Positions 780 through 64,000 of a DNA stretch of 64,000 nucleotides are shown here, piece after piece; position 1 is the stretch's first letter, and every line of letters starts with the position of its first letter. The notes under the pieces are model-generated. The model saw nothing but the letters and a program-made list of their open reading frames with translations. It did not search any database and was not told the origin of the DNA. This stretch comes from Escherichia phage DT571/2. A program made the translations under genes and the position numbers. The DNA lies in the sequence record NC_047749.1. One strand, written 5' to 3'.

Positions 780-786
780 GCTAATC

Positions 787-819: not shown

Positions 820-821
820 AT

Positions 822-850: not shown

Positions 851-878
851 AGATTTGTAAATTTGAGAGGAGAAAGCT

Positions 879-1318: not shown

Positions 1319-1386
1319 AAGGTATGTATATAGGGAGTAATTTTACCTCAAAACATTATCGAAGGATTTAAGTGAGGAATTGTACA

Positions 1387-2877: not shown

Positions 2878-2879
2878 AT

Positions 2880-3308: not shown

Positions 3309-3317
3309 GGGGACACA

Positions 3318-3710: not shown

Positions 3711-3801
3711 TTTTTATTAGCTGAACTCTGATTACCGAGTCATTTTGGCTCGGTTTTCTCTATGCTCAAAGACACTGGTAGCAGCCCCTGGAAAAATTTA
3801 C

Positions 3802-3830
3802 TTGCTTGATGCTCAAAATCTTGATATAAT
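3802..3830 (+). promoter_or_regulatory. T5-type sigma70 promoter firing into a ~0.6-kb non-coding stretch
   Basis: ttgctt 3802-3807, 17-bp spacer, tataat 3825-3830, leader atttatattgaattgagagac; no ORF of 60 aa or more on + until 4425. Confidence 0.55.
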
Positions 3831-4424
3831 ATTTATATTGAATTGAGAGACATTAGTAAAAATTGATTTTGCTAATTTTTCTTAGTGAAGCTGACAAGGG
3901 ATTTACGGCGAGAGGAATCGATGACCCGTAAATAGCTGCATAAGGTACGTTGCTAGAGCTTTACGAAAAAGTTTTTTCTTGTTTACAATCCGCGATACGG
4001 AACAGTTAGGCTGCCCCATTAAGGGTTGTTTTAACTATTACTAGTGTTTATATTGCATTAGTTAACCTTCAATTAAGTGATCTGTGTACCCTGAATTCGG
4101 AAAGGTAAATCCAAACCGTGCATATTTAGCTCGTTATATAGGCAGAGCTTTATATGGGGGTGCGAACGAAAAGAGCAGCGAATGGCGGCACGTACAGTAG
4201 TCACCTACCAATAGGATAGTGAGGACAAGTAGAATCGGCTTAGCGGCCAATGACCTAGGTTCTATTCTGTATAAGAGCGAAGAGAGCACAGCACTGAGAT
4301 ATGATAACTTATTCATATTGTTTGATGATAATTGATGTTTACGTAAATAGTAGTAATAGTTGTTCTATTCTTTCTGAATAGTCCTAAAGAAAAGATTTCG
4401 ATTAACCAACACAGGAGTATTATT

Positions 4425-7214: not shown

Positions 7215-7431
7215 AAAATGGGAAACAAGGAAGTTTCCAGTAAAAGAACGTAAAGTTCCTGTTTATGATACTTCGGAGAAGCTATGTAGGGTGGTTCCTG
7301 CTAGACTAGCAGGTATCCCTAACATATCCGAGTGGTTACTTAAACAACGGAGGACTAGCGTATCCCTTCGCATAGGGTTTGAGTTGGATAAAGTATATGC
7401 TGAACTTTCTTCTTTGCTCAAGGAATCATAA
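7189..7431 (+). CDS. Hypothetical protein (80 aa)
   Basis: ORF overlaps the end of the 929-aa gene; basic; weak support. Confidence 0.3.
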   Translation: MLEMTVKNKKWETRKFPVKERKVPVYDTSEKLCRVVPARLAGIPNISEWLLKQRRTSVSLRIGFELDKVYAELSSLLKES

Positions 7432-7440
7432 AAAATTTAC

Positions 7441-7469
7441 TTGCATAGTTCAAAAAATTTCTGTATAAT
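7441..7469 (+). promoter_or_regulatory. T5-type strong early promoter (PN25-like)
   Basis: A-rich upstream tcataaaaaatttac, -35 ttgcat 7441-7446, 17-bp spacer, -10 tataat 7464-7469, leader agattcataaatttgagagaggag; near-identical to the T5 PN25 promoter as I recall it. Confidence 0.8.
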
Positions 7470-7500
7470 AGATTCATAAATTTGAGAGAGGAGTTTAAAT

Positions 7501-8205
7501 ATGGCTGGTTCTCGCAGAAAGAAACATATCCATGAAATCCCGGATGAAGTCTTTAAAAAAGTTATAGAGCATCTGGAGAACGGTGGTACTAAGAAAGCAG
7601 CATGTGAGATGCTCGGCGTATCATCCAATCCGACTATGGAAAGGATGATAGAAGAGTGGCAAGATCGCCAAATTCAAGTTGCCGAGATGAAGAAAAAGAA
7701 ACGTGGTACACTCATTGAAGGCATCGAGTTAGCTAACGTTATTGAACAGTATTTATCCGGTGATTCTTTTGAAGAGATTGCCGATCGTAATTATCGCTCT
7801 GTAGCAATGGTTAAATCTGTTCTGGAACGATATGGTGCTCTACTTCGTTTGAACGATATTGTAGACCCGTTGAATCCACCAATTATTCCTGATGATGCTG
7901 TAGCAGAAGAATTTGAAGTAGGTGAGCTAGTTTGGGTTCCTGGATACCAGTGTATCGGTGAAATCAAAAAAGCAATGGATAACCCTGTTGGTTGTTACCG
8001 TGTATGGCTTCTATCAGAAGGCAAACAACAGAATGTTCATTATATGAATTATGAATTAGCTTCTGTAAAGCATTTAGAAAAGCTAGGGGTTGACGTAAAA
8101 TCTCTGGGGTATAAATGGTCCCGGGAAGAAGTTATCACACTGATTAACGAAGCTGTTAAGGCTGCCTTGAAACTTGATAAAGAAAAAGGAAAACGCCGTG
8201 AGTAA
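7501..8205 (+). CDS. Putative DNA-binding transcription regulator with two HTH motifs
   Basis: HTH-like GTKKAACEMLGVS, and SFEEIADRNYRSVAMVKSVLERYG resembling sigma70 region-4 helices; immediately downstream of a strong promoter. Confidence 0.5.
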   Translation: MAGSRRKKHIHEIPDEVFKKVIEHLENGGTKKAACEMLGVSSNPTMERMIEEWQDRQIQVAEMKKKKRGTLIEGIELANVIEQYLSGDSFEEIADRNYRSVAMVKSVLERYGALLRLNDIVDPLNPPIIPDDAVAEEFEVGELVWVPGYQCIGEIKKAMDNPVGCYRVWLLSEGKQQNVHYMNYELASVKHLEKLGVDVKSLGYKWSREEVITLINEAVKAALKLDKEKGKRRE

Positions 8206-8449
8206 ACTAACTGATTTGCTTAAAGATGGGGAAGTAAAAACACTATATCGTAGAAGCTGGGATAACGATAATAACGGCTTAGTGTTACTAACTTTAGATG
8301 CTGACTCGGATGTAGCTACTCAACATACCTGGGTAGCGGGCAACTATCCATATAGCGAAGTTGTTTCATTAACAGTATGCGAAGCTGTTGCAGACGATTG
8401 GGAGATTGCCAGCATTGATGATATGCTCGCTGTTGGCCTGGTGGAGTAA
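8198..8449 (+). CDS. Hypothetical protein (~84 aa)
   Basis: GTG 8198 with SD aagga 7 nt upstream, in the same frame as track ORF 8174-8449. Confidence 0.4.
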   Translation: MSKLTDLLKDGEVKTLYRRSWDNDNNGLVLLTLDADSDVATQHTWVAGNYPYSEVVSLTVCEAVADDWEIASIDDMLAVGLVE

Positions 8450-8466
8450 CTACTTAAAAATTTCAG

Positions 8467-8495
8467 TTGCTTAATCCTACAATTCTTGATATAAT
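8467..8495 (+). promoter_or_regulatory. T5-type sigma70 promoter
   Basis: ttgctt 8467-8472, 17-bp spacer, tataat 8490-8495. Confidence 0.6.
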
Positions 8496-8552
8496 ATTCT
8501 CATAGTTTGAAAGAACTATTCTGTTTAATTCTTAATTAAGGAAATATAAAAT

Positions 8553-8963
8553 ATGACTACTCCAACTCAGTGGACTGATGAACTGTTCGAAAAAATGTCT
8601 TCCGAATACGTTGCTCGTATGGAGCAATTCCCAGAGGATGAACGTCCGAGTGTTAGCATGGAAATTGTTAGTGAAATTGCCCAGGAAAATGGTGTAACTC
8701 CGAACGGTTTTCGTATGAAGCTGACTAAAGCAGGTTTGTATATTAAGAAAGCTGCTGGCTCTGCTTCTAAATCTAGTGCATCTACTGGAGAAAAAGCTTC
8801 CGGTGGTTCTCGTACCTCCAAAGCCCAGGCTCATGCCGACCTTCGTTCAGCGTTCTCTGATGCTGGCTTAGCACCAGATTTTCTGGATGATGCAATTATC
8901 GACAAACTGACCGGTAAAGCGGCTGCTCATCTGGCAGAAGCAATCCGAGCTATCACTAAGTAA
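8553..8963 (+). CDS. Hypothetical protein (136 aa), Ala/Ser-rich C-terminal half
   Basis: RBS taaggaaatataaaat-ATG; no catalytic motifs. Confidence 0.5.
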   Translation: MTTPTQWTDELFEKMSSEYVARMEQFPEDERPSVSMEIVSEIAQENGVTPNGFRMKLTKAGLYIKKAAGSASKSSASTGEKASGGSRTSKAQAHADLRSAFSDAGLAPDFLDDAIIDKLTGKAAAHLAEAIRAITK

Positions 8964-8977
8964 TAGGGAGATTATAC

Positions 8978-9265
8978 ATGAATAAACAAGAAATTATCTC
9001 CGCATGTGAAGCCCATAATGAGTTCTACCTTCATTATGAGAAACTACGCCAAAAGGGTACTACATACCTTCAGGGTACTATGGATTTTTCTGATAAGTAC
9101 CTAAGTAAACGTTTTGCTCAGGAGCGTATCCGTCAACCAAAAGATGACGAAATTCTAGTGTTTAGTCGCACTAATGACAGCTTCCGATTTATTCCTGTTG
9201 CGAAAGTTCGTCGCATTACGAGCCTTCAGTCAGAGTTAGATCGTGCTTCTCCAGTAGGCCGATAA
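8978..9265 (+). CDS. Hypothetical protein (95 aa)
   Basis: RBS gggagattatac-ATG; followed by terminator. Confidence 0.45.
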   Translation: MNKQEIISACEAHNEFYLHYEKLRQKGTTYLQGTMDFSDKYLSKRFAQERIRQPKDDEILVFSRTNDSFRFIPVAKVRRITSLQSELDRASPVGR

Positions 9266-9275
9266 GAAACCAATT

Positions 9276-9300
9276 AGCCCCTATATGGGGCTTTTTGTGT
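9276..9300 (+). terminator. Rho-independent terminator
   Basis: Stem agcccc/ggggct, loop tatat, followed by ttttt. Confidence 0.6.
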
Positions 9301-9315
9301 ATTTGAGAAACGTAA

Positions 9316-9624
9316 ATGAGCGATCAGGTAAACCAAAACTATGAAGGACACGTTGATGATCAGTCAATCCTTCTATGGGAAAGAGAAGGGGAACAAATAA
9401 GATTGACAGTATCTGAATTTCGTGGGAATCTATACATGGGAATTAGGTATTGGCTCCAGGATATTACTGGAGAATGGTTTCCAACGAAATCCGGCTTCTC
9501 TTTTCCGTACACTCTAGAAACTACTTCACAGCTATTCTATGCTTTTACGCAAATCCTTAGTGAATCTGAGGTTTTACATGAAGTACAGAAACGAGCTGAA
9601 GAACTCAAAGCCAAGAATGCCTAG
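9316..9624 (+). CDS. Hypothetical protein (102 aa)
   Basis: ORF with downstream terminator; no motifs. Confidence 0.45.
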   Translation: MSDQVNQNYEGHVDDQSILLWEREGEQIRLTVSEFRGNLYMGIRYWLQDITGEWFPTKSGFSFPYTLETTSQLFYAFTQILSESEVLHEVQKRAEELKAKNA

Positions 9625-52919: not shown

Positions 52920-54680
52920 TTAGGTAAGGCGTTGAACTGTTACTCGTAGTCTCGGTAAGAAAACTGCTGAACCTAAACTAACGTGTAGTATAACACCTAA
53001 TTCTGCATTACCATTACCAAGATTTTTTATTGTATATATAAAACTATTTCTACTAAAAGCTCCGCTGTCTGGAGTATATTTATAAGCAGAGGTAGTATGG
53101 AAAGGTACTAACTTTCCAGGAGGAAGAACTAAAATTTGGTGAAATATAGCATCTCCTCCTGTATAACTTTGTGATTTTCTTCCTTGCACCTGAAAAACAC
53201 TACCATTCCACGTATTTACTGGTAACCCAGCAACATTAAGGTTACCAGATAGTATTTCACTAGTTAATATAACAGTAGAGTTATTATTTGGCAGACCTAA
53301 TCCAACTGTTGCTAGGGATTTATAAACATTACCAGTGCCTGGGTATGTCGGAGTAATATCGTTACCAATATAGGCGCTAGCCACGTTACCAGATAATAGG
53401 CGTAAAGGTACTGATGAAGGCCCCCAGACAACACCATTCTCATTACCAATAGTATTATTATTAGAGTTTACGTACCAAGTCTTACCAGCAGAGAACTTAT
53501 AAATACTAAGTTGTGCTCTTGTACCACTATAGTTGACTGGTGCCCATATAGATCCTTTATTGGAACATACAAATTCACATCTTCCAGTAGTATCCCCAAA
53601 CACTCCATCATGAGCAGCGTTTACTCCAATATACTCCATATCAGCACGAGAAGTTAGGTTTCCTAAAGCATTCTGATTAATAAACTTCCAACTAGTAGTA
53701 GATAACTTAACTCCCTTAATAGTAAAGTTGGACGGAGAAATTATTATGTCAGAACCCGTGAAAGGGTTACTAGAAACAGACATACCACCGTTAGAATACC
53801 TTAGGTTCAGTACATACCATATAACTTTTGTAGGAGTTACTCCGTAGCCATCTTGAACTATTTTTGTATTAGCTGATTGACTTGCTAACTTAGTAGCAGA
53901 ACCTCTACAAACATACCTATTTCCACCATCACTAAAGTGCTGTACTATATTGCTAGGAATTGTTTGTTTGTACCCAACATACCCCCTAATGTTAGAATTA
54001 CATACATAAAACCATTCATGGCCACGTTTACCAGCCCCCATTGGAGCCATCCAGTTAGGATTCCAATAGTACGTATCACCTGAAGATATAGGAACGGAAG
54101 AACTTCCTATAGGATACCCTAGTTGTTTGAAGGTTTCAGCTACAGTAGCACCCACAGGTGCACCACCCCCCGGTCTTACAACACCATGGTAAGTACTATG
54201 TAGTACAGTACCACCTGTACCACTTCTAGCTATAGATTCTTCATGCCCCAGAGAACTATTATAAGAATAAGTACCTGAAGCTAGACTATTCCCAAAAGCA
54301 AATCCAGCAGTTTGACTTAAACTAGCAAACGATCTATAGGGGTCAGCCTGAGTAGAAGAAAGAAATTGTCCAACTTGGGATTGAGTACCATTCAAGAAAC
54401 CACGATGAGTACCATTAACTTCTATAGCTGTTAGTATAACCCTACCAGGATCATTGCTCTTTAGGTTAACTATATCAGAAGGCATTTGGCATACATAGAA
54501 ACCATTCCCAGCACTACTTAATGCACTCTCATAAGTGCTTTCTACTAATACGAAGGGCATATCAGAATGAAAAATAGTATTAGTACTAGGGTTTTTATGA
54601 GCATTAATATCTCCACCACTAGCAGTATTTAGTGACAATACAGTTTTACCATCACTATATTTTCCAGCGAAAAAACCCAT
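52920..54680 (-). CDS. Receptor-binding tail protein (pb5-like, 586 aa)
   Basis: Last late gene, divergent from the lipoprotein gene as for oad/llp in T5; Gly/Ser/Asn-rich. Receptor cannot be told from sequence. Confidence 0.6.
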
Positions 54681-54705
54681 ATAATCTCCTATTATAAAAA
54701 TGTAT

Positions 54706-54734
54706 TTGCTTTTATCTCTCTATTTTGCTATAAT
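54706..54734 (+). promoter_or_regulatory. T5-type sigma70 promoter for the lipoprotein gene
   Basis: ttgctt 54706-54711, 17-bp spacer, TGc-tataat 54726-54734, leader agattcataaattagaaatggagag. Confidence 0.7.
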
Positions 54735-54765
54735 AGATTCATAAATTAGAAATGGAGAGATAAAT

Positions 54766-55032
54766 ATGAAAAAGTTTGTAATTGCACTAGTTGCCACAGT
54801 TATGTTATCTGGTTGTGCACCTGCTCCCAAACCATTTTGTACGGGATTTGTAAAATCTTTTGGTGGTGCGGGAGAGGAACATTACGGTCTCAAGGTTCAA
54901 AAAGTTCGTATTAAGGGAGATCGCTTTCCAGTAGTACAGCTCCGTACTAAGTTTGGGTGGTGGGATCTCAGTCAGTTTGACCTTAAATATGGTGATTGTA
55001 AATTTAAACTAGAGCAATCTAATTACCTGTAA
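54766..55032 (+). CDS. llp: Lipoprotein, receptor-blocking superinfection-exclusion type (Llp-like)
   Basis: Signal peptide plus lipobox MKKFVIALVATVMLSGC; small; divergent from the receptor-binding gene; early-type promoter. Confidence 0.7.
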   Translation: MKKFVIALVATVMLSGCAPAPKPFCTGFVKSFGGAGEEHYGLKVQKVRIKGDRFPVVQLRTKFGWWDLSQFDLKYGDCKFKLEQSNYL

Positions 55033-55208
55033 TTAGTATAAAACAAAAAGACATCCAAGTAAACTAAATTTTTTATTTCTTGGATGGTATATTGGCATAA
55101 ACCACTATGTAAGAAAAGTAGAAGTCCTTCTAGGAGTCCATAAGCACGGTTGGTTATGCACAAATTGTAGAATACTTTAAATATCACATTTATAGGAGCA
55201 TGAAAGAT

Positions 55209-55337
55209 ATGTCAAACAAGAGAAAAAGTAGACGCGGAGAAGTGTATGAGAGTTGGGTTAATAGTTTTGGACTTGGGACTATCCTATTTTTTATTTTCGT
55301 AGGTTTTTGGTTGGCAGCTATGGCGGGGTGGATTTAA
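55209..55337 (+). CDS. Small membrane protein (42 aa)
   Basis: SD aggag; C-terminal TM helix LGTILFFIFVGFWLAAMAGWI; stop overlaps the next start. Confidence 0.4.
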   Translation: MSNKRKSRRGEVYESWVNSFGLGTILFFIFVGFWLAAMAGWI

Positions 55338-55444
55338 TGGAATGGGTAATTGTTACATTGCTAGGGATTGTGATTATTGGGCAATGTATTTTAGATAATC
55401 ACTTAGCTAGAATTGAAACTTTACTAACGGAGAAACGTAAATGA
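55337..55444 (+). CDS. Small membrane protein (35 aa)
   Basis: N-terminal TM helix WVIVTLLGIVIIG; TAATG and ATGA overlaps with neighbours. Confidence 0.4.
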   Translation: MEWVIVTLLGIVIIGQCILDNHLARIETLLTEKRK

Positions 55445-55635
55445 TGGAAGTAGTAGCTACACTAATAGTAATACAAGTCTGGGCAACTTTCATTGTTTCT
55501 TATAACGCGTATGTTCGCCTAAAAACTCTAGAGGCTCAAGTAAAACAGCAACAAGTTACTCTAGAAAAGCTAGTACTACTGCAACGTTGTGATAGTACCC
55601 GCATTTTGCAAATTGAGAGGGAATTAGATGTTTAG
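55441..55635 (+). CDS. Small membrane protein with coiled-coil tail (64 aa)
   Basis: TM helix VVATLIVIQVWATFIV followed by a helical charged segment. Confidence 0.45.
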   Translation: MMEVVATLIVIQVWATFIVSYNAYVRLKTLEAQVKQQQVTLEKLVLLQRCDSTRILQIERELDV

Positions 55636-55873
55636 TATTATACTTGCTTTTATTATCGGGGTGCTTGCGGGAATTTTCGGAATGACTGCGGCTATTAACA
55701 AGCATCGCAAATATATCGCGGAAGTATCGCGGGAGATTGCGGAAAGGGAGCGGAAGTTTGACGAGAAACGTGCGGAGTTCGAACGGGAGTGGAGTGATGG
55801 TTCTCGGGCGTCGCGGAAGAGATTTCGTGAGTTTAGACCTGAACATCGGTTTGATGACCATTCTATGCGCTAA
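55628..55873 (+). CDS. Small membrane protein with highly charged C-terminal domain (81 aa)
   Basis: N-terminal TM helix FSIILAFIIGVLAGIFGM followed by an Arg/Glu-rich tail. Confidence 0.45.
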   Translation: MFSIILAFIIGVLAGIFGMTAAINKHRKYIAEVSREIAERERKFDEKRAEFEREWSDGSRASRKRFREFRPEHRFDDHSMR

Positions 55874-56038
55874 TTGGGAAATCTCGAAATTTCATAAGAT
55901 TACACATGGAGGTGTGCTCACCGCCGGAGGCGAAAATACTTAGTCTGCTAACCGCCACCCCCCGTTACTATTACTCTGCTAACTATTTCACCTTGCAACC
56001 ATTTTAATTGCAAGGTGAAACAAATTCAACTGTAATTA

Positions 56039-56773
56039 TTACGCTACTTTTAATTTCTCAATATATTGTTGTGGGCTGCAACTATATTCTGCGCGCTCCT
56101 CCTCGGTCATACCTTCCCAACATAATTGCAAGCGGTCGGCTAGGAACTGATAATCATTATCATCTTCAAGAGATTCATCAATAAAGGTTTCGCCGATCAA
56201 TGTGACGCCTATTGATAGAATATCGTTAACGGCTTGCGCGTCCAGCGTTTTAAATCCATATGCCGCCGCCGCTGATAATACGCCTTTATGATCATCAATC
56301 ATCGTGAAATCAGCGTTCGGATATAGCTGTTTGAATAGCTCAAAATAATGGCTTTTATATATAGCGTCTTTACTGTGGTATATTTCGCTAACCTTATCAG
56401 CCGTAAAATATTTGTGAAGTGTATCGCGGGAAAATACGCGGATATTGCTATTCCCACGCCCTCGCAGACCTTGTTTGCGCAAATAATAATAATCCGACTT
56501 ACTCATCAGGCGAGCGGTGCAAATAATGTTTAACGTGTTGGCGTCATTCATGCATTGGCGCATATAGGTAACGAGCGGCAAAAGCGTATCCTGCATTATT
56601 AACTCATGTTTGCACGCTTCATTTTTATACTTATTTAAATCTAAATCGCCTTCAATATCAAAGCAAGGCGCTACACGGTGGGCGGAGTTAATGATCGTGC
56701 CGTCCAGATCCCAAATCATTACGCGGGAAATATGCGGGTAATTGCGGGAAATATTCTTTTTATCTTGATTCAT
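56039..56773 (-). CDS. dmp: 5'-deoxyribonucleotidase (HAD family; T5 dmp-like, 244 aa)
   Basis: HAD motif I IWDLDGTI near the N-terminus; 244 aa; pre-early-region context. Confidence 0.7.
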   Translation of the reverse strand: MNQDKKNISRNYPHISRVMIWDLDGTIINSAHRVAPCFDIEGDLDLNKYKNEACKHELIMQDTLLPLVTYMRQCMNDANTLNIICTARLMSKSDYYYLRKQGLRGRGNSNIRVFSRDTLHKYFTADKVSEIYHSKDAIYKSHYFELFKQLYPNADFTMIDDHKGVLSAAAAYGFKTLDAQAVNDILSIGVTLIGETFIDESLEDDNDYQFLADRLQLCWEGMTEEERAEYSCSPQQYIEKLKVA

Positions 56774-56847
56774 TTTGTTACGTTCTCCATTAAAGGGATT
56801 AAGTTAATTTAATCCAGCCCATACAGTGGGCTGGAGTATTTCAGTCA

Positions 56848-57249
56848 TTAAAATACCAGACCATAAGCCAAAGCATCAGCGATAACAGTAATATCCTCGC
56901 CAGATACACCGGAACGAATACCGGCGCATGTAAATACCTTCGCGCTCATTAACTGATCATCAAGACAAGCGGGGCAAGGCGCGACAACTGCGAAAGCTAA
57001 ACCAGCTTTTGCGGCGTCAATAATAGTCGTTTCTTGTTTCATCGTATCAATGTAAACGCCTTTCGCCTTGATGCGGCTAGATAGCTTGCCCGTGGTGTAG
57101 GCGAAAGTAGTGATCTGTAGCGCCTCATTAAATTCGATTAAGTCATCAACAACGTGCCCCGCCTCGACGTGATAGCGCTCACCGGTAGAATAAACTAGGA
57201 CGATTGCAGACTGCGCGCGATCGAATGGGATACGGTTGTAAGTAGTCAT
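56848..57249 (-). CDS. Hypothetical pre-early protein (133 aa)
   Basis: ORF with the conserved ggagtt-ATG initiation region shared by neighbours. Confidence 0.45.
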   Translation of the reverse strand: MTTYNRIPFDRAQSAIVLVYSTGERYHVEAGHVVDDLIEFNEALQITTFAYTTGKLSSRIKAKGVYIDTMKQETTIIDAAKAGLAFAVVAPCPACLDDQLMSAKVFTCAGIRSGVSGEDITVIADALAYGLVF

Positions 57250-57318
57250 GCGTATAACTCCAATTAATTTAATAAACTTTTATGGCGGCGGTATATTTCG
57301 CCCGCCCGCCTGATTTAT

Positions 57319-58983
57319 TTACGCGAAAAATTTGCCGTTTTTAAAGTCGATTAACGTGCGCTGCCCGTTTGCATATGTAATTACATGCGTTTGCGTCCAG
57401 CTTGATGCGCCGACGTTGTAGCCCATATCGAGGCTGCCCGATACGCCAGCAGTATATACGCCGCCGTAAATGCTGGCGGTATGGGTGTGCCCCGTGTTTA
57501 ATTTGCCCAACTTTTTAAATTGCTTCGGATTGCCGCGGCTCCCGTTGATGCCGTTGTGACCGTGTACGCCGCACTCAATGCCTGCAATCTTGAATGATTG
57601 ATCAGTCGTTAGGAATATGGCGTTAAACTCACAGCCTGCAACCTTGCGCAGCGCATAATCCAGCACGTTGAAAGTATCGTCATTTTCTGCAATAGCTCCA
57701 TAGATCGCGGCGTTGAGGCGGTGATATAGCTCTGCGTTTGCTGGATCGTCTTTAATGTTAGCGTTGCGATCATCCAGCCAACGGGATAACGCCAGATCGT
57801 GGTTTGACTCAACAATGATTGTTTGCGAGAAATCGCGCTCCATTGATTCCAATACACGCCCCGTGTCGATAAGATCATCTAAAACCTTATCACGTCCGGC
57901 GGCGTACTGTTTTGCTAGGAATACGCCAGATGCGCGATTGTGGTGGTTGCGTGATGTAAAGTCATGCACATCATGCACGAACTGATATTTAGGTTTAAGA
58001 ATATCAAGCAAACTATTTTCGCCCGCCCATGACGCTTCAGCACACGCCTTATCTAATTTTTCAGCGTGCACGTCGCCATACTGTAAACCTAAAACATGCC
58101 CCGATGTTTCATAACATCCGGCGGGAGTGGCGCAAATATTCAAATCATAAAAAACGCCGGTTTCATCCATCGTCTCAAGCTGGCGAACAAAAAATGCCCC
58201 GTCCTCGTCAAACTCGACAATCAGCGCGCCAAAGTTATGTAACGCTTCGGCCTTTTGCCCTGCTTTCTGCTGAATGTAGTTTTTTAGCGTTGCCGCTCCC
58301 GTTGAGTACATACGGCGCACTACTTCACCTTTGAGCGCTGGAACGCTTTCTGCGGTGATTTTAGCTGCTCCAATTGCCAAACCTTCAAGATCAAGCGCTG
58401 TTGCAGTCTCAGCGAATCCAGAAAGCGGGTAGTCTGCCGTTGGCAAAACATTAATCTCAGCCATGAAAGCAAAGCGGCGACTATTTAAAAACACGTTTTT
58501 ATTACAGATATATTTATCAAAAGCGGAATCATATTTGATCCCGTCCGCACCTTCTCCATTCTGGAATCCTTTTTTGTTATAAATGAACTTGCTAACCAGC
58601 AAATCAGCGCCGATAAATTGGGCGTAATGTTCAAGTGAGGCTAAAAAGTTTTTATGCGGGAACGTGTTGTTCTGGATTGATGTTATAATGAAGCGTTTGC
58701 CCTGCTTTACTTCCCACTGTTCAACCGTGCTAGAAATAATTCCCGCCGCCTCTGGGCGCTCGTCGTTTTTAACGGCTTTTGATGCTTTCGCCTCTTTTGG
58801 TTTCGCTGGTTTGTTTGCTTCCAGCCAATCACAAATTGCGGTCGAATGTTTTGCCGTATCGTACACCGCTTTTGATATATCGTCGCAGACTTCCAATCTA
58901 GTAGCGCGCAGACGTTTACCGTAAAAATTAAAATCAGCGGCCAGCTTCAGGATAACGGTTTGTTTTTCTGCGGAAATAACCAT
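57319..58983 (-). CDS. A1: Pre-early protein A1-like, metallophosphoesterase fold (554 aa)
   Basis: Calcineurin-like motifs in order: GDVH, ESNHD, HGHNG, GHTH; size close to T5 A1 (556 aa as I recall). Confidence 0.6.
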   Translation of the reverse strand: MVISAEKQTVILKLAADFNFYGKRLRATRLEVCDDISKAVYDTAKHSTAICDWLEANKPAKPKEAKASKAVKNDERPEAAGIISSTVEQWEVKQGKRFIITSIQNNTFPHKNFLASLEHYAQFIGADLLVSKFIYNKKGFQNGEGADGIKYDSAFDKYICNKNVFLNSRRFAFMAEINVLPTADYPLSGFAETATALDLEGLAIGAAKITAESVPALKGEVVRRMYSTGAATLKNYIQQKAGQKAEALHNFGALIVEFDEDGAFFVRQLETMDETGVFYDLNICATPAGCYETSGHVLGLQYGDVHAEKLDKACAEASWAGENSLLDILKPKYQFVHDVHDFTSRNHHNRASGVFLAKQYAAGRDKVLDDLIDTGRVLESMERDFSQTIIVESNHDLALSRWLDDRNANIKDDPANAELYHRLNAAIYGAIAENDDTFNVLDYALRKVAGCEFNAIFLTTDQSFKIAGIECGVHGHNGINGSRGNPKQFKKLGKLNTGHTHTASIYGGVYTAGVSGSLDMGYNVGASSWTQTHVITYANGQRTLIDFKNGKFFA

Positions 58984-59080
58984 AATATTAAAACTCCATT
59001 AAAGGGATTAAGAACGTTTGTTATTGGCAAATATTGCCAAATATAACGCTGCTTATTAACAGCGTTATAATTTGCAATAC

Positions 59081-59326
59081 TTAACTGATCGGCATCAGGC
59101 TAGAACTAACACCACAAACAACGGCGGTAATAAAACAAAATAAGCCTAAACGCTTTGCTAACTTTGATTTGCGTTTAAAGTAATATGAATCCAGATCATT
59201 CTGGAAATAAGCGAACAATAATGAGGCCGCTACAATAAATAAACCTAGAATTAACGATTCAGTGGGATAAAAGATCATTTTAATAATTCCAGTTAAAGGG
59301 AAATTATAGTGGGGAATATTCCCCAC
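59081..59326 (-). CDS. Small membrane protein (81 aa)
   Basis: Two predicted TM helices. Confidence 0.4.
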   Translation of the reverse strand: MGNIPHYNFPLTGIIKMIFYPTESLILGLFIVAASLLFAYFQNDLDSYYFKRKSKLAKRLGLFCFITAVVCGVSSSLMPIS

Positions 59327-59335
59327 TAATTAAAT

Positions 59336-59752
59336 TTATTCACCTGCGGATTGTTTTACTTCATCTGCTACGCCTAGTAATTGCGCTACGGCGTCCAGCG
59401 TTTCTAATTTTGCGCTTTCCAGACTTGCCAGATCGTCGGCGTCTTTGATAATGCCGGAATCAATGGCATGTTTAGCAATAACGCGCACATAATGCGCCTT
59501 GCGGATTGAACTACCGCCGCCAACTTTGCGCGGTTTATCGCTTTTCTGATACGCTTTTGCGCTGGTCAATTTTGAGCGAACAGACACAGGGGAAGTAGCG
59601 CCCACTGTTTTGGCGATCTCTTTCAGGCCGTCGCTGTTTGCGAACTCTAAACCGTTTTCATTGATTAATTGCTGATACATAGAAACGGCTTTTTGGGTAT
59701 TTTCTTCATTCCATGCAAATTTTGCGGATTTTTCGGTTTTAACGTTAGTCAT
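59336..59752 (-). CDS. Pre-early protein, A2-like by size and position (138 aa)
   Basis: Directly upstream (in transcription order) of the A1-like gene. Confidence 0.45.
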   Translation of the reverse strand: MTNVKTEKSAKFAWNEENTQKAVSMYQQLINENGLEFANSDGLKEIAKTVGATSPVSVRSKLTSAKAYQKSDKPRKVGGGSSIRKAHYVRVIAKHAIDSGIIKDADDLASLESAKLETLDAVAQLLGVADEVKQSAGE

Positions 59753-59852
59753 GGTATAAACTCCAATTAATTTAATTTAAGGGATAAGATTAACATAATG
59801 TTAATCGTTATATTTCCCCAATAGTTCGGGGAAATATAAAGTTAACACTAAA

Positions 59853-60104
59853 CTATGCTACAGCTTCCAATTTTTCGTTACGTTGAACAACTTTTACAAC
59901 GTCGCCAGATTTAACGCGAACACTAAAAACGGTTTTTCCGTTGTTGCTACGTTCCGTTTCTGCATATACTGCATCAATTACATCGAACGGCATGAGCGCC
60001 GCGCCTTTGATGCGTTCGGCCTTTCCGGTTGCCTCGTCTGTTTTAGTAACGAAAGGGATGAAAACGGATTGACCAATTTTTGGCGCGGTGATAGCGTTTT
60101 TCAT
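59853..60104 (-). CDS. Hypothetical pre-early protein (83 aa)
   Basis: Shares the ggagtttatacc-ATG initiation region with the A2-like gene. Confidence 0.45.
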   Translation of the reverse strand: MKNAITAPKIGQSVFIPFVTKTDEATGKAERIKGAALMPFDVIDAVYAETERSNNGKTVFSVRVKSGDVVKVVQRNEKLEAVA

Positions 60105-60338
60105 GGTATAAACTCCAGTTATTTGATGGATTGTTCCGCATTACCTGCTAAAAAATAATAACAGGTAATAAGAAAAAATCCGCTCACCGTTAAAATCAAT
60201 TTAAGGAACTCCACACAGGCCGCTATATCCCGTTAGGGGGCGGGGCACATTATGGCAAGTACCGGCCGTCAAATTTTACCAAGTTATCGCTCTTGTTGAA
60301 TCGGGTACATTTTAAAGCCTATCGGCTAGGGCGTCAAA

Positions 60339-60509
60339 TTATTTTTCGTTTTCTTTTAAATTAGAATTCTCCCAACTGAATTGCATCTCGCAAAATATTT
60401 TCCCATCTTTATGATGGTAAGCGATCTCGCTCCCGTGGTTAGCACAGAAAGCGATCACTGCCTCAGCTTGTTCTACCGTGATATTGTTGGCCGTTTCTTT
60501 GATTTTCAT
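60339..60509 (-). CDS. Small hypothetical protein (56 aa, not in the ORF track)
   Basis: Strong SD aaggaga 7 nt upstream of ATG at 60509; translates to MKIKETANNITVEQAEAVIAF... Confidence 0.4.
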   Translation of the reverse strand: MKIKETANNITVEQAEAVIAFCANHGSEIAYHHKDGKIFCEMQFSWENSNLKENEK

Positions 60510-61132
60510 ATCGTCGTCTCCTTATAAGGTTAATAAGTTTGCCGCCGATGGGCTTTAAAATGCACCTGATTTTTAAAGAGCGCGGCGGTAAACTTTCCGC
60601 CGTGTAGTTCGTCATTGCCGCCCTACGAGATAAATAATAGGGAATACCCAAAAAAGGTGCAACCTTAATTTTGTAAAGAAATGTAAAGAAAGCAAATACC
60701 CGCACCGCGTCCGGCGATCGCCCAAGTTTAAAGGAAACAGGCGCGCGGATACCATAAAACCGAGCTGATTGGCAAGTAATTTTTTCATTTTTATTTGCCT
60801 TGCCCTACTTGACAAAACTTAAAAAGCTCGTGGTGACGATAAACGGGCTATCCCTTTATGATGGGATACCTGAAAAATTTACCGCGTTGTAGGACGTTTT
60901 AGGCCGCTTATCTTCGATTTAACAAATATTTAACAAAAGCAAAATTGAAAAATAGTTTGAGAAGGTATTGACTTTTTAAAATCAAGACTAAACGAGTTAT
61001 TTTAAAAAATTAATTAATTGACTTTTATTTGTTGTTGTGTAGTAGAAAGATAGCAGACTAATAATTGCTAGAATGATAATCATGCTGGTGATTGTAACAG
61101 ACTGAACTATTAGCAGACTACTGATCCCGGAA

Positions 61133-61176
61133 AATCTCATTAGCCAACTAACTATCTCATTAGCCAACTAACTATT
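61133..61176. repeat. Direct repeat 2 x ~21 bp (ctcattagccaactaactat)
   Basis: Two adjacent copies. Confidence 0.8.
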
Positions 61177-61185
61177 TCATAAGTT

Positions 61186-61365
61186 ATAATAACTATAAAA
61201 ATAATCACCGTTAAAATAATCACTATAAAAATAATCACCATTAAAATAATAACTATAGAAATAATCACCATTATAATAATCACCATTAAAATAATCACTA
61301 TAAAAATAATCACCATTAAAATAATCACTATAAAAATAATCACCATTATTATAATCACTATAAGA
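61186..61365. repeat. Tandem array, ~12 copies of a 15-bp AT-rich unit (ATAATCAC[C/T][A/G]TTAAA / ATAATCACTATAAAA)
   Basis: Contiguous 15-bp periodicity read directly from the sequence. Confidence 0.9.
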
Positions 61366-61401
61366 AACTATCGGCTTAAGTGAGAACCACTATCATTTAA
61401 G

Positions 61402-61510
61402 TTATCCACAACGTTATCCACAGCACAAAATGATTTGACACGATAGGCGGCGATATAAAGATTTATCCACAGACTTATCCACAGGTTATCCTACTGTATA
61501 TTTATCCAGG
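61402..61510. promoter_or_regulatory. DnaA-box cluster (4 perfect TTATCCACA plus 2 variants)
   Basis: TTATCCACA at 61402, 61414, 61463, 61475; variants ttatcctac 61486 and ttatccagg 61502. Confidence 0.8.
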
Positions 61511-61880
61511 GTAAAAAGATAGTGTTTACAACTGCAATCAATTTTGAGCGGCCTAAAACGCTTTCTAACGAGCTGATCGCTGTAGGGTAATATTAAAGTA
61601 AAGCCTTTACCCGTCGGCCTAGAGGCTTCGCCGTGTTTTGCTCTTTACTGCACCGCTGCGCGGTTAGCATAAAACTAGGTGTTAGGCAAGAAAAATAAAA
61701 AGTAAAGTAAACGTTGCCCCTAGAAAGAAAATAATTTTACCGGTAACATCGAAAGCGGGTAATAATTAACCTAATGTAAAGTTTTGTAAGGCCCGCCATA
61801 ATCAGCGGCCTTTTTTGTTATACTGCCCTTACACCGTTTAAGGACGGTTAAAAATTTCCCGAAAAATTTGGAGGCTTAAA

Positions 61881-62060
61881 ATGGTTATTTTTCGATCTAT
61901 TCTGGCGGGTATCTTGGGCGCTATTTTAACTCTATTTGCTACCGCTTACGGTATTCAAGATTCTTATTGCGGTTTAGTAAATACTAAACCTATGGTTATT
62001 ATTGGCGCGGGTATCGCTGTTTTTTCTTATTTGCTGGGCTGCATGAATAAAGGAGAATAA
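61881..62060 (+). CDS. Small membrane protein (59 aa)
   Basis: SD ggagg 6 nt upstream of ATG; two hydrophobic helices. Confidence 0.45.
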   Translation: MVIFRSILAGILGAILTLFATAYGIQDSYCGLVNTKPMVIIGAGIAVFSYLLGCMNKGE

Positions 62061-62062
62061 AA

Positions 62063-62275
62063 ATGATCCGCAACGTTTCTCTTGCTCGTTCCAAAGGTTT
62101 TAAGCTGGTGGATGTAAACACGTTCGAGCGTCCTGGTTGTAAAATCGAATATATAGCGCGGAATAAAAACGCTTTCCGCGTTACAGAAAAGAGATTCGAT
62201 AAACGCGGCAACGTGATAGCTGAAACGGTTAAATATTTTGCCACCTTTTACGCGGCCTTTCGTGGGGTATTATGA
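62063..62275 (+). CDS. Hypothetical protein (70 aa)
   Basis: SD aaggaga; part of a tightly packed small-gene operon. Confidence 0.45.
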   Translation: MIRNVSLARSKGFKLVDVNTFERPGCKIEYIARNKNAFRVTEKRFDKRGNVIAETVKYFATFYAAFRGVL

Positions 62276-62397
62276 AGAGCGTTGTTATTGTTATCCTTGC
62301 AATGGTTGGCGGTTTTACCACCACCTTGTTTAGAAATGATCCTCTTTTGCTAGGGATCTTTATGCTTTTATCTGGTTATCTGATCGGGAGGTTATAA
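62272..62397 (+). CDS. Small membrane protein (41 aa)
   Basis: ATGA overlap with the previous ORF; hydrophobic. Confidence 0.35.
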   Translation: MKSVVIVILAMVGGFTTTLFRNDPLLLGIFMLLSGYLIGRL

Positions 62398-62398
62398 A

Positions 62399-62743
62399 AT
62401 GGTGATTTATGAAGGTGATCGCCTTGTTGCTGATTGCCGTCCGGCATTGTTAGCAAACTACTTAAACCAGCTTTCGCCAGTATATAAAGGCGTTATAAAT
62501 ATTTATGAAGGCGGGGCGCATTATAAGATTAATGCGGTCGTTGCCCGTGAACTAGCGTTTCAATTTTTAACCTTTTCATCTTGCAATATTCAGGTCATGG
62601 GTGAGGCGTTAATTGCAGAAAATGAAGATGATTTTATTAATATCTTTCGCAAGATATGCACCGAGCGCCTGATAATGAAAGGGGCATATATTCAATCCAC
62701 TGCGGATAGTATTGAAACGGCTTTTCGAAAGGTGGCACAATGA
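62399..62743 (+). CDS. Hypothetical protein (114 aa)
   Basis: SD gggagg 7 nt upstream. Confidence 0.45.
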   Translation: MVIYEGDRLVADCRPALLANYLNQLSPVYKGVINIYEGGAHYKINAVVARELAFQFLTFSSCNIQVMGEALIAENEDDFINIFRKICTERLIMKGAYIQSTADSIETAFRKVAQ

Positions 62744-62848
62744 AGCTATATATTTTCGCGGGTAATGTTGAGGCTGCAAATGATTCCGCTGGTGGCGATA
62801 GCGTTCGCCATTATTGGCAAAATTATATTTACTAGGCGTAATGATCAC

Positions 62849-62903
62849 GGGGCACAACTATCAGGGAGTGCCCCTGATTCTCAAATGAGAATCATTCTCA
62901 TTT
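62849..62903. repeat. Hairpin (ggggcac/gtgcccc) followed by a perfect 21-bp palindrome aaatgagaatcattctcattt
   Basis: Palindrome at 62883-62903 is related to the 23-bp array units downstream. Confidence 0.8.
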
Positions 62904-63136
62904 GACCGCGCCCGCGATGGTTAGCACACTAATGATTAGGGTGTTACGTGTCGCCTTGTGTGATCGTTAGCGGGCTAACTAATTTTCAAGCCTCCTCCAG
63001 ATTTGCCCTTGTTTTAGTATCCCCATCAAAATAAAACGCGTTAGAAAGCGATTCAGGGCGTTTTAGGCCTATATTAGAATTATTCACTGCGTAGGAATAC
63101 TGTATATTTATACAGTAGAATAACCTGGGGATAAGT

Positions 63137-63208
63137 CGGTGGATAACGCTTCAAAATGGCTAGAATTTTGTCAAGGCAAATCGTGCTGTTGATAAGTCTG
63201 TGGATAAC
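63137..63208. promoter_or_regulatory. Second DnaA-box group, opposite orientation (tgtggataa)
   Basis: gtggataac 63139-63147 (8/9) and perfect tgtggataa 63200-63208. Confidence 0.65.
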
Positions 63209-63240
63209 TTAAATAACAGTGTTTCTCACTTCCGTTTTTA

Positions 63241-63505
63241 AATGCGAATCATTATCATTTGCATTCCACTTCTTAAATGAGAATCATTTCACTTCTTGAA
63301 TAGTTCTCATTCCCTTTCTTAAATGAGAATCATTTCACTTCTTGAATAGTTCTCATTTCACTTCTTGAATAGTTCTCATTCCACTTCTTAAATGAGAATC
63401 ATTCCACTTCTTAAATGAGAATCATTCCACCTCTTAAATGAGAATGATTATCATTCGCATTCCACTTCTTAAATGCGAATGATAATCATTCTCATTCGCA
63501 TTCCG
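63241..63505. repeat. Tandem array of ~9 copies of a 23-bp unit in two variants, flanked by palindromic aatg(c/a)gaat..attcgcatt elements
   Basis: Variants CCACTTCTTAAATGAGAATCATT and TCACTTCTTGAATAGTTCTCATT. Confidence 0.9.
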
Positions 63506-63509
63506 GCGA

Positions 63510-63755
63510 GCAGGGCAATTGCCCTGCGCTTATGTGCAAATCCGACAATTGCTCCAAGGGTTACGCGAGGGCATGTATGTGCAAATCCGACCCATTTTTT
63601 GGTAGTGTGCAAATCCGACCCCAAAAATTTATAAATTCGTGAGAGTGACAAATCTGTCTCCCAAAAACTCCAGCAATCACGAACTGCGTTCGAATCCTGT
63701 GGGGTATGTGCAAATCCGACACGGTTTTTCTAGGATTAAGATGTGCGAATCCGAT
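63510..63755. repeat. 18-bp palindrome gcagggcaattgccctgc plus 5 dispersed copies of the 14-mer TGTGCAAATCCGAC
   Basis: 14-mer at 63533, 63578, 63606, 63707 and variant tgtgcgaatccgat at 63742. Confidence 0.85.
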
Positions 63756-64000
63756 GAAATTTTTGTGACTTCGATGAGAGGGTGTGTGATTGTATAGGTT
63801 TGAGGAGAAGATGAGAGAGCGAGAAAAATTTTGGGGCTAGAAGTGTATGGGCGCAGGATTGGTGCGGAGCACCTGATTTGCGGGGGTTTTGGGGGATAGT
63901 GGAGATAATTTGGGGAAATTTGAGATAGGTGCAGAAAAAGTAAAATTTTATTAGCTAAAGGGGGCAATATAGCTTGACAATTGAAAATTCTTGTGGCTCT

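Follow-up and report, generated by a model that had tools for sequence, protein, structure and literature searches.

A coupled cassette of four small genes lies between llp and the right terminal repeat

The window, i.e., the 64,000-nt stretch of DNA analysed here, corresponds with 100% identity to the right 64 kb of Escherichia phage DT57C (KM979354). Flanked by llp on one side and by dmp/A1 on the other, as the original prediction had it in placing them between llp and the pre-early genes, four consecutive small open reading frames (o1–o4) are all present on the plus strand with the predicted sizes. They comprise o1 (55209-55337, +; 42 aa), o2 (55337-55444, +; 35 aa), o3 (55441-55635, +; 64 aa) and o4 (55628-55873, +; 81 aa), the first two being shorter than 60 aa. 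Each matches a PHROG family across essentially the whole profile, namely PHROG 8596 for o1 (E 1.1e-31), PHROG 6369 for o2 (E 1.1e-25), PHROG 5851 for o3 (E 1.3e-33) and PHROG 6447 for o4 (E 7.8e-48). The four genes are annotated as DT57C_000130-133 in DT57C and are orthologous to T5.159, T5.160, T5.161 and T5.162 of T5 (AY543070), listed respectively as ORF148, ORF149, ORF150 and ORF151 in AY587007, and to BF23_00172-175 of BF23, with the same order, strand, overlaps and distance of 42 nt to the terminal repeat. Apart from the llp upstream, which in DT57C is of the BF23 type and not of the T5 type, the locus differs from that of T5 in nothing of substance. The genes as such are thus already known: the GenBank entries of DT57C, T5 and BF23 call them hypothetical or putative membrane proteins, and the T5 record notes “contains single transmembrane domain” for each of T5.159-T5.162. 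What is added here is that the cassette lies outside the repeat, that it is under purifying selection, that o1 and o4 are near-universal while the middle genes come and go, and that a role in lysis can be set aside.

The start of o1 was assigned to 55209 because this ATG is invariant, whereas the upstream ATG at 55200 is not kept and reads ACG or ATT in 5 of 18 relatives; for o3, an alternative start is possible at its second ATG (55444). A Shine-Dalgarno sequence is present for each of the four genes, and each later start overlaps the preceding stop. The TAATG and ATGA links described in the original prediction hold for the first two junctions, o1/o2 (TAATG, 1-nt overlap) and o2/o3 (ATGA, 4-nt overlap), but not for the third, since o3 and o4 share an 8-nt overlap, ATGTTTAG, that is neither of these motifs. 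The start/stop overlaps are retained in cassette variants of three, four and five genes, and nucleotide diversity, also at synonymous sites, is minimal at the o1/o2 and o3/o4 junctions. Together, o1–o4 make up a true operon with translational coupling, encoding four small inner-membrane proteins that each cross the membrane once, and it is virtually certain that they are real genes for membrane peptides. On the opposite strand, a 101-aa ORF (55556-55861, −) was considered and rejected, as it has no conserved start and is interrupted by stops in relatives.

Transcription signals and the terminal repeat around the cassette

Upstream of the cassette, llp (54766-55032, +) encodes a BF23-type lipoprotein that blocks the receptor BtuB, according to the DT57C annotation; it matches PHROG 1119 (Cor superinfection exclusion, E 1e-25) and carries a Pfam lipoprotein attachment site. 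A consensus scan located a promoter-like site upstream of llp (54632-54661, +), GTGACA-18-TATATT with 10 of 12 matches, a candidate for the early promoter of llp and perhaps also of the cassette; an early promoter is annotated at the equivalent place upstream of llp in T5 records. The 176-nt spacer between llp and o1 (55033-55208, +), aligned among 18 relatives, holds a conserved block at its 3′ end, including a −10-like TAGAAT (55168-55173) and a Shine-Dalgarno AGGAG (55194-55198), and between T5-type and BF23-type spacers conservation is confined to the last ~40 nt. The consensus scan found no full promoter match in the DT57C spacer, whereas the T5 spacer contains TTTACA-17-TAGAGT with an upstream TG; matches in this region are not clearly above the shuffled expectation. 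The spacer also contains a hairpin, whose fold is not unusual (z = −1.18), and a terminator after llp was rejected on this value.

The right terminal repeat begins at 55916, equivalent to base 1 of the DT57C record, and blastn of bases 1-9500 of that record against the window aligned 1-8085 to 55916-64000 with 99.975% identity. The cassette therefore ends 42 nt before the repeat and lies outside it, which answers the question left by the original prediction and agrees with its placement of the genes where the late module meets the terminal-repeat region; the same 42-nt spacing is found in the T5 and BF23 annotations. Inside the repeat, between the convergent genes o4 and dmp, a hairpin with a 13-bp stem (55986-56020) is present. 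The RNA fold of 55874-56038 has a free energy of −39.7 kcal/mol (z = −3.2), and the hairpin has no U-tract; in T5, a putative rho-independent terminator is annotated at the equivalent position. This hairpin is likely the transcript end of the cassette. A search of 54600-56200 against Rfam returned no RNA family.

Each cassette protein has one hydrophobic segment and a distinct soluble part

Kyte-Doolittle analysis identified one strongly hydrophobic segment in each protein, with best 19-residue means of 2.17 (o1), 2.18 (o2), 2.06 (o3) and 2.53 (o4), in keeping with the single transmembrane (TM) helix foreseen for each. In o1, a basic N-terminal peptide (NKRKSRR) is followed by a C-terminal TM helix, and the protein is predicted to be tail-anchored with its N-terminus inside; the motif RGEVY..W.N..G.G is invariant. 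The other three proteins carry the TM helix at the N-terminus, followed by tails of 16, 41 and 58 aa in o2, o3 and o4, respectively. The tail of o2 is amphipathic, whereas the TM helix of o3 runs into a heptad-patterned helix, in which 73% of the residues at a/d positions are hydrophobic against 30% elsewhere, and the o3 C-terminus QRCDSTRILQIERELDV is invariant. The TM helix of o4 contains an invariant IIGxxxGxFG and is followed by a juxtamembrane segment, NKHRKY, a charged E/R/K helix and a basic tail, so that the region beyond the membrane is highly charged (18 K/R and 14 D/E) and ends in the basic C-terminus SRASRKRFREFRPEHRF. The two charged or coiled-coil soluble tails announced from the sequence are thus recognisable in o3 and o4. 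AF2 models show a single helix over residues 2-63 of o3 (pLDDT 84) and over residues 2-69 of o4 (pLDDT 73).

Small-xxx-small motifs occur in the TM helices of the cassette proteins, and conservation is higher in the juxtamembrane and tail motifs, such as RGEVY..W.N of o1 and the C-terminus of o3, than in the TM segments. Conserved cysteines are found at C17 of o2 and C50 of o3. The conserved core of o4 comprises residues 1-67; its charged helix shows 7-aa indels among relatives, and its last 14 aa are exchanged for others in those relatives with a homing endonuclease gene downstream. In o2–o4, no basic residue precedes the anchor and three to four K/R occur within the 15 residues after it; a C-in orientation is favoured on this basis, and the charge distribution predicts, by the positive-inside rule alone, that the three tails are cytoplasmic. 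For certain N-terminal anchors, that of Rz among them, this rule cannot be relied on. A lipobox of the form [LVI][ASTVI][GAS]C is found in llp and in none of o1–o4.

The cassette is a conserved backbone element with a variable middle

The cassette is demonstrably under purifying selection, with pN/pS values of 0.145 (o1), 0.136 (o2), 0.340 (o3) and 0.278 (o4), and variable sites within o1–o4 are commonest at third codon positions. In relatives, o1 and o4 are intact, free of the frameshifts and stops that would have spoken against the original prediction, save for one in-frame deletion in o4 of L027. With o1 in 446 and o4 in 442 phage records, against 468 that contain dmp at an identity of at least 60%, these two genes form a core present in almost all T5-like coliphages and Salmonella phages. 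The genes between them vary, and the cassette ranges from two to five genes across relatives: o3 is present in 304 of ~445 genomes and missing from 7 of 24 IMG/VR loci, Yersinia phage phiR2-01 has the order o1-o3-o4 without o2, and two loci (L011 and L016) carry a 51-aa tandem paralogue of o2 (o2x; hhalign probability 95.8%). Each of o2 and o3 is therefore dispensable in some lineages. In divergent phages, o1 is followed by unrelated ORFs, and in a Klebsiella T5-like phage the same slot holds unrelated ORFs with an N-terminal TM segment and a coiled coil. Comparison of o2 with o3 by hhalign gave a probability of 10-45% and did not establish paralogy, nor did hhalign relate o1 or o4 to any other cassette protein.

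The cassette proteins are 78-95% identical in T5, whereas the llp and rbp of T5 are unrelated to those of DT57C. Because the cassette is conserved in T5 despite the unrelated llp and rbp, and because conservation starts ~40 nt 5′ of o1, the cassette belongs to the conserved genome backbone that adjoins the right terminal repeat and is not part of the exchangeable receptor module (rbp-llp). A foreign origin of the cassette was rejected, as its GC content of 0.41 is close to the 0.40 of the window.

Searches find homologues only among T5-like phages

No homologue of o1–o4 outside T5-like phages was found in 1.84 billion representative proteins, Pfam, NCBIfam, PADLOC or PDB. An HMM of o4 run against the 1.84 billion proteins gave five matches, and word-indexed searches gave 83 clusters for o4, 32 for the o1 profile and 251 for o3, all of them T5-like. 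At E ≤ 1, Pfam returned nothing for o1–o3 and only sub-threshold, unrelated matches for o4. One of these, PF06305 (LapA_dom), remained below its cut-off of 28 bits with a score of 22.6 (E 1e-4), and the match was limited to the TM and juxtamembrane stretch; it was rejected together with an FtsL-like match as compositional, both covering no more than the TM segment and the charged helix. Described exclusion proteins in Pfam, NCBIfam and PADLOC show no similarity to o1–o4.

A literature search found no mention of T5.159-162 or T5p155-158, and the literature on T5 transcriptomics and small membrane proteins yielded nothing specific to the cassette. In a genome-wide CRISPRi-ART screen of T5, T5.159-162 fall outside the 17 “Fit” genes and show no fitness defect on knock-down; since the recall of CRISPRi-ART in T5 is low, absence from this list is weak evidence.

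Lysis, tail assembly, DNA tethering and host takeover as possible roles

Holins and antiholins come to mind for small proteins that cross the membrane once and have charged tails, and a holin- or spanin-like nature was among the options raised in the original prediction. The cassette could thus supply a holin/antiholin accessory, a pinholin-like peptide or a short spanin-like component; the outer-membrane lipoprotein gene llp is adjacent, o2–o4 share with spanins (lambda Rz/Rz1, T4 PseT.3/PseT.2) an anchor at the N-terminus with a helical segment behind it that is partly coiled coil, and in a divergent T5-like contig (L036) a 184-aa protein in the analogous position weakly matches Rz-like spanin PHROGs (E ~1e-3). 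However, a lysis role is very improbable, because the DT57C genome encodes a holin, an endolysin and Rz-like spanins at other sites, with hol and lys at 18.0-19.1 kb of the record and two Rz-like spanins at 20.6-21.3 kb (RefSeq), as T5-like phages also do. Moreover, o1–o4 match no holin or spanin profile (Pfam; PHROG, Rz-like at E ≤ 0.01), have no o-spanin partner and no lipobox, and their 16-58 aa tails are too short for the periplasm, an i-spanin needing roughly at least 100 aa, while the charge pattern favours the cytoplasm. Llp itself has a different, solved function in receptor blocking, and the cassette sits beside an early-expressed gene, far from the endolysin. A part in the virion or in tail assembly is hardly credible: it is suggested only by the nearby rbp and by the names “tail assembly protein” and “tail fiber protein” propagated in GenBank and UniRef for o2 and o3 orthologues, names that are without support, given that the original T5 and DT57C annotations read hypothetical or membrane proteins. 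Membrane-anchored peptides of 35-64 aa, encoded on the strand opposite to the late genes, matching no tail-protein profile and, for o2 and o3, missing from many viable phages, do not fit such a role.

The predicted architecture could also serve DNA organisation, with anchored coiled coils and basic segments holding phage DNA, its ends, or replication and packaging proteins at the membrane. In phi29, DNA replication is organised by p16.7 and p1, early proteins that are small and membrane-anchored and contain coiled-coil and basic segments. In the cassette, o3 and o4 are predicted to be single long helices with cytoplasmic tails of 41-58 aa, the o1 N-terminus and the o4 C-terminus are basic, the 7-aa indels of the o4 helix preserve the heptad phase, and the genes adjoin the genome end. 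Set against this, Pfam and NCBIfam detect no DNA-binding domain in o1–o4, phi29 belongs to a different lineage with a different host, the basic last 14 aa of o4 are freely replaced in the relatives with a homing endonuclease, some lineages do without o2 and others without o3, and knock-down causes no fitness defect, so a tethering role is quite improbable. Possible, albeit doubtful, is a set of host-takeover effectors, in which each peptide would bind some inner-membrane machinery of the host and inhibit or redirect it; candidate targets are the divisome, the synthesis of peptidoglycan or lipids, transporters and proteases, as well as abortive-infection or defence systems bound to the membrane. 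Precedents exist among small phage membrane proteins that inhibit division or wall synthesis of the host, SPO1 gp56 being one. PhiNM1 Gp11 is another, a small membrane protein described to block cell division (PMC11237401). Both resemble the cassette proteins as single-pass peptides of less than 100 aa from early or host-takeover operons, an architecture that o1–o4, from a probably early operon, share without any homology. The better conservation of tail and juxtamembrane motifs than of TM segments suggests specific protein contacts, the quick turnover of gene content at the locus is what would be expected of host-interaction genes, and the genes are dispensable in a laboratory strain. Nevertheless, o1–o4 resemble no known effector and have no match in PADLOC or Pfam, and a conserved, coupled four-gene unit points to a single complex more than to four separate effectors.

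A tentative role in exclusion or envelope conversion

Our preferred reading, held at a probability of roughly 0.3, is that the cassette would serve as an accessory module of the inner membrane, expressed together with llp or close to it, and would prevent superinfection or bring about some other conversion of the envelope. Directly upstream on the same strand lies llp, a proven superinfection-exclusion gene; the two are adjacent and probably form one early transcription unit. An accessory role is suggested by the gene number of two to five, the tandem o2 paralogue and the fast-changing locus. Like Llp and its counterparts (T5 Llp, BF23 Llp, and Cor of T1 and phi80), o1–o4 would be small envelope proteins made by a lytic phage for the infected cell; unlike these outer-membrane lipoproteins, which have a lipobox and act on the receptor, they have no lipobox, are predicted to reside in the inner membrane and are conserved regardless of receptor type. 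Exclusion proteins of the inner membrane, such as T4 Imm and Sp, HK97 gp15 and P22 SieA, are likewise small and membrane-anchored; they are produced by the resident phage, often encoded near tail or receptor genes, and nonessential in the laboratory. The cassette differs from these in lacking any sequence or profile similarity to them, in its predicted cytoplasmic tails and in its coupled four-gene set, which is atypical.

As to topology, complex formation, expression timing and function, we infer the following scheme. Once the whole genome is inside the cell, host RNA polymerase would transcribe the cassette rightwards, starting from the early promoter of llp and/or a weak promoter in the spacer and ending at the hairpin just inside the repeat. 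Ribosomes would move from ORF to ORF via the overlapping stop and start codons, and the amounts of the four proteins are expected to be coupled. The tail-anchored o1 would be inserted with its basic N-terminus in the cytoplasm, whereas o2, o3 and o4 would be inserted N-out/C-in, each as one long helix extending a 16-58 aa tail into the cytoplasm, with a helical part of ~41-46 residues in the tails of o3 and o4. Through their small-xxx-small TM helices and amphipathic tails, the proteins may assemble into a hetero-oligomer. The module would then convert the inner membrane of the infected cell, complementing Llp and not acting in lysis, and its most likely effect would be to block DNA entry of superinfecting T5-like phages whatever outer-membrane receptor they use, or to protect the envelope in some other way.

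Llp is expressed early and mediates superinfection exclusion (PMC9586334), and its function has been demonstrated in DT57C (PMC4728585). Against exclusion by the cassette, Llp alone suffices for exclusion at the receptor (PMC9586334). The tails, if cytoplasmic as predicted, would offer no obvious way to stop DNA that arrives from the periplasm and likewise count against exclusion. Early expression, for its part, is assumed from position, and a DT57C spacer with a hairpin and without a consensus promoter also weighs on that side.

A bolder version, which we regard as unlikely, is that the cassette forms a new kind of inner-membrane exclusion complex, acting downstream of the receptor and against all T5-like phages. 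We infer that no unique DNA enters the cell after the cassette, and that an entry-blocker encoded there could not impair the transfer of its own genome. In the new-complex version this position would be functional, the blocker being made only after the two-step genome transfer is complete, and the varying o2, o2x and o3, together with the look-alike genes in the corresponding slot of Klebsiella and other T5-like phages, would reflect an arms race between related phages. If exclusion is indeed the function of the cassette, a classical model phage would possess a second, receptor-independent exclusion layer, and the cassette would offer a handle on the passage of T5 DNA across the inner membrane, which is still poorly understood. 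A possible lead comes from published plating data: a clone of DT57C llp only, whose reverse primer ends at the o1 start, reduced plating 100-fold, as compared with the >10^6-fold reported for earlier BF23 clones, and the authors call the reasons for the difference in DT57C not clear (PMC4728585). As a hint of a cassette role, this gap between the llp-only and BF23 clones serves as a lead only.

Four overlapping membrane-protein genes

The cassette comprises four small plus-strand genes, o1 (55209-55337, 42 aa), o2 (55337-55444, 35 aa), o3 (55441-55635, 64 aa) and o4 (55628-55873, 81 aa), and both the ORF list and the sequence bear out the position and lengths originally predicted. The predicted start of o1 is also correct, because the ATG at 55209 does not vary among the relatives compared, but 5 of the 18 have ACG or ATT in place of an in-frame ATG upstream, at 55200. 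A purine-rich Shine-Dalgarno sequence lies 5-10 nt ahead of every start. The junctions are, in order, TAATG, ATGA and an 8-nt overlap (ATGTTTAG), so that the proposed TAATG/ATGA linkage holds for the first two junctions but not for the third, which has neither motif. Each protein contains one 19-residue stretch with mean hydropathy >2, in agreement with the single transmembrane (TM) segment proposed for each.

Window 54700-56100 is 100% identical by megablast to Escherichia phage DT57C (KM979354 / NC_027356), in which the record position equals the window position plus 44065 and the last base is the window end. At exactly the cassette position, the DT57C record carries four CDS, DT57C_000130-133, two named 'hypothetical protein' and two 'putative membrane protein', with notes referring to T5p157/ORF150 and T5p158/ORF151. 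The cassette is real and correctly described, but it had been annotated before in the DT57C record and in T5, and the new information is descriptive. It belongs to the T5.159-T5.162 orthologous set, with all three of the defining features tested present.

Conservation and coding status

All four proteins match PHROG profiles end to end (E 1e-25 to 1e-48). In a comparison of 24 IMG/VR loci, BF23 and T5, third codon positions are the most variable sites in o1-o4, and pN/pS (Nei-Gojobori) is 0.145 for o1, 0.136 for o2, 0.340 for o3 and 0.278 for o4. The o1/o2 and o3/o4 junctions show the lowest nucleotide diversity, also at synonymous sites, a pattern that fits selection on translational-coupling signals. 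An antisense 101-aa ORF overlapping o3 and o4 (55556-55861, minus strand) lacks a start codon shared by the relatives, several of which have stops within it; it is therefore spurious, a by-product of coding-strand composition.

A tblastn search of 50,697 phage records detected o1 in 446, the o4 core in 442, o3 in 304 and o2 in 187, the last with the limited sensitivity of a 35-aa query. The neighbouring marker dmp, the pre-early gene convergent with o4, occurs at ≥60% identity in 468 records; by this measure, ~95% of T5/Epseptimavirus-level relatives carry o1 and o4. Among ~440 Demerecviridae of Vibrio, Klebsiella and Proteus, which are more distant, neither gene is detectable.

Profile, word-indexed and database searches found no homologues outside T5-like phages: an o4 profile retrieved 5 proteins from 1.84 billion representatives, all in T5-like clusters, and word-indexed searches with o4, o1 and o3 returned T5-like clusters only. 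Pfam, NCBIfam, PADLOC, PDB sequences and Rfam gave no match to the cassette at or above threshold. The top sub-threshold match of o4, LapA_dom (22.6 bits versus a cut-off of 28), does not extend beyond the anchor and juxtamembrane segment and was rejected as compositional. Because the defining features tested for the spanin, holin, Cor/Llp and LapA families are absent, the cassette is placed outside all of them.

Protein architecture

The o1 protein carries a basic N-terminal peptide (MSNKRKSRRGEVYESW), with 5 K/R and 2 D/E ahead of its anchor, and its hydrophobic helix is C-terminal, which fits a predicted tail-anchored, N-in arrangement. The hydrophobic helices of o2, o3 and o4 begin at residue 2-3, no basic residue precedes them, and 3-4 K/R lie within the 15 residues past each; under the positive-inside rule, this charge pattern predicts outside N-termini and cytoplasmic tails, a topology that we treat as prediction only. 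AlphaFold2 models o3 (residues 2-63, pLDDT 84) and o4 (residues 2-69, pLDDT 73) each as a single helix. The o3 tail has a heptad pattern (73% hydrophobic at a/d versus 30% at other positions), and in the o4 tail an E/R/K-rich helix gives way to a basic segment; 7-residue deletions in this charged helix, found in three natural variants, keep the heptad phase. The o4 TM helix contains an invariant IIGxxxGxFG motif, and the membrane segments of o1 and o3 are less conserved than their juxtamembrane/tail motifs.

Variation of the locus

Gene number in the cassette varies among relatives and is not fixed at four. T5, BF23 and DT57C have o1-o2-o3-o4, seven IMG/VR loci o1-o2-o4 and Yersinia phage phiR2-01 o1-o3-o4, and two loci (L011 and L016) have o1-o2x-o2-o3-o4; the additional o2x (51 aa) pairs with o2 as its tandem paralogue (hhalign probability 95.8%). 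Stop/start overlaps are preserved in the 3-, 4- and 5-gene variants. In divergent T5-like phages, unrelated ORFs occupy the slot between the receptor-module gene rbp and dmp: o1 is accompanied by a 38-aa C-terminal-anchor peptide (L034, 3114-3230), by an unrelated 110-aa ORF (Enterobacter phage KKP_3711) or by four unrelated N-terminal-anchor, coiled-coil ORFs of 75-184 aa (L036, 3117-4404); a 110-aa ORF in L031 (2608-2940) lacks this build. In a Klebsiella T5-like phage (L038), this rbp-dmp slot holds 74-aa and 151-aa ORFs (4386-5069, minus strand) with a cassette-like architecture, N-terminal anchor plus coiled coil, but undetectable similarity. The 184-aa ORF of L036 and the 151-aa Klebsiella ORF both have Ser/Gly/Pro-rich tails ending in ...CSF, and the former weakly matches Rz-like spanin PHROGs (E ~1e-3). 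In genomes with these long forms, llp, the receptor-blocking lipoprotein gene upstream of the cassette, is neither annotated nor called at the locus.

The ~14 last o4 residues are replaced in genomes with a downstream homing endonuclease gene; residues 1-67 therefore form the functional core. The o4 3' end is an insertion hot spot. In many relatives (L012, L016, L018-L020, L023-L025 and L027, ~2700-3220 in locus coordinates), an HNH homing endonuclease gene lies between o4 codon 67 and the terminal repeat, equivalent to window 55829-55915, and its start often overlaps the rewritten o4 C-terminus, with MSESGDKPVDRRSS, KINGKS or AKVSDEE replacing EFRPEHRFDDHSMR. DT57C, T5 and BF23 lack this insert.

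Cassette identity between DT57C and T5 is 78-95% despite unrelated llp and rbp genes, and upstream sequence conservation starts only ~40 nt ahead of o1, so the cassette is part of the repeat-adjacent backbone and not of the exchangeable receptor module.

Candidate functions

None of the papers searched mentions the cassette genes. A genome-wide CRISPRi-ART screen, which has low recall for T5, found 17 genes that lower T5 fitness on knock-down; T5.159-162 are absent from this list, and the cassette genes are probably dispensable under laboratory conditions. Taken with the fast turnover of genes at the locus and the proven exclusion gene next door, this dispensability points to an accessory inner-membrane function. 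Our preferred reading, to which we give a probability of only about 0.3, is an exclusion or envelope-conversion complex that would complement Llp at a step shared by all T5-like phages; the mode of action of such a complex may resemble that of inner-membrane exclusion systems. The position of the cassette, as the last unique DNA entering the cell, would be compatible with such a role. A DT57C llp-only clone, made with a reverse primer ending at the o1 start, lowered plating only 100-fold, versus a reported >10^6-fold for earlier BF23 clones, a gap that the authors leave unexplained (PMC4728585); we regard it as a lead on the role of the cassette, not as evidence.

Small effectors acting against host inner-membrane machinery or defence systems are a tentative alternative to an exclusion complex, and a role in tethering phage DNA or proteins to the membrane is doubtful. 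The original prediction also offered a holin/spanin-like reading, which is disfavoured: DT57C has holin and endolysin genes and two Rz-like spanin genes annotated at 18-21 kb, the T5-like lysis cassette has been described as complete (PMC4342426), and o1-o4 have short tails, no lipobox and no holin or spanin profile match, making any lysis-related role distinctly unlikely. Some database names would imply tail assembly, GenBank/UniRef orthologues of o1-o3 often being called 'tail assembly protein', 'tail fiber protein' or 'receptor blocking protein'; the o1-o3 sequences (55209-55635) offer no support for these names, apparently annotation errors that have spread between records, and we consider a tail-assembly role highly improbable.

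Transcription and the adjacent terminal repeat

A promoter-like site lies upstream of llp, where an early promoter is annotated in T5, and early expression of llp is known (Decker 1994, cited in PMC9586334). T5 has an additional site, TTTACA-17-TAGAGT, 36 nt ahead of the T5.159 start, of which the DT57C counterpart retains only a -10-like TAGAAT; the fold of the llp-o1 spacer is unremarkable. A 13-bp-stem hairpin (55986-56020; fold z = -3.2) lies between the convergent o4 and dmp, inside the repeat, at a position matching an annotated putative terminator in T5, and lacks a U-tract on both strands. From this arrangement, cassette transcription would be early and rightward, ending at the repeat hairpin.

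Positions 1-8085 of the DT57C record match window 55916-64000 at 99.975% identity. The right repeat therefore starts at 55916, 42 nt past the o4 stop, and this alignment of the record's left end settles that the cassette lies outside it. The same 42-nt gap is found in T5 (T5.162 end 111490, repeat start 111532) and BF23 (104759 and 104801). Being inside the repeat, the hairpin has a second copy at the left genome end, beside dmp. The DT57C repeat_region feature (window 56039-63634) disagrees with the actual repeat, and its limits are only approximate because the 8085-nt end identity runs from 55916 to the record's last base. Terminal repeats measure 10.1 kb in T5 and 9.7 kb in BF23, and the right-hand copy here may be shortened by the record end. 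Also within the repeat, a tandem array (63262-63497) repeats a 23-bp unit (CATTCCACTTCTTAAATGAGAAT) about eight times and shows a higher-order period of 69 bp.
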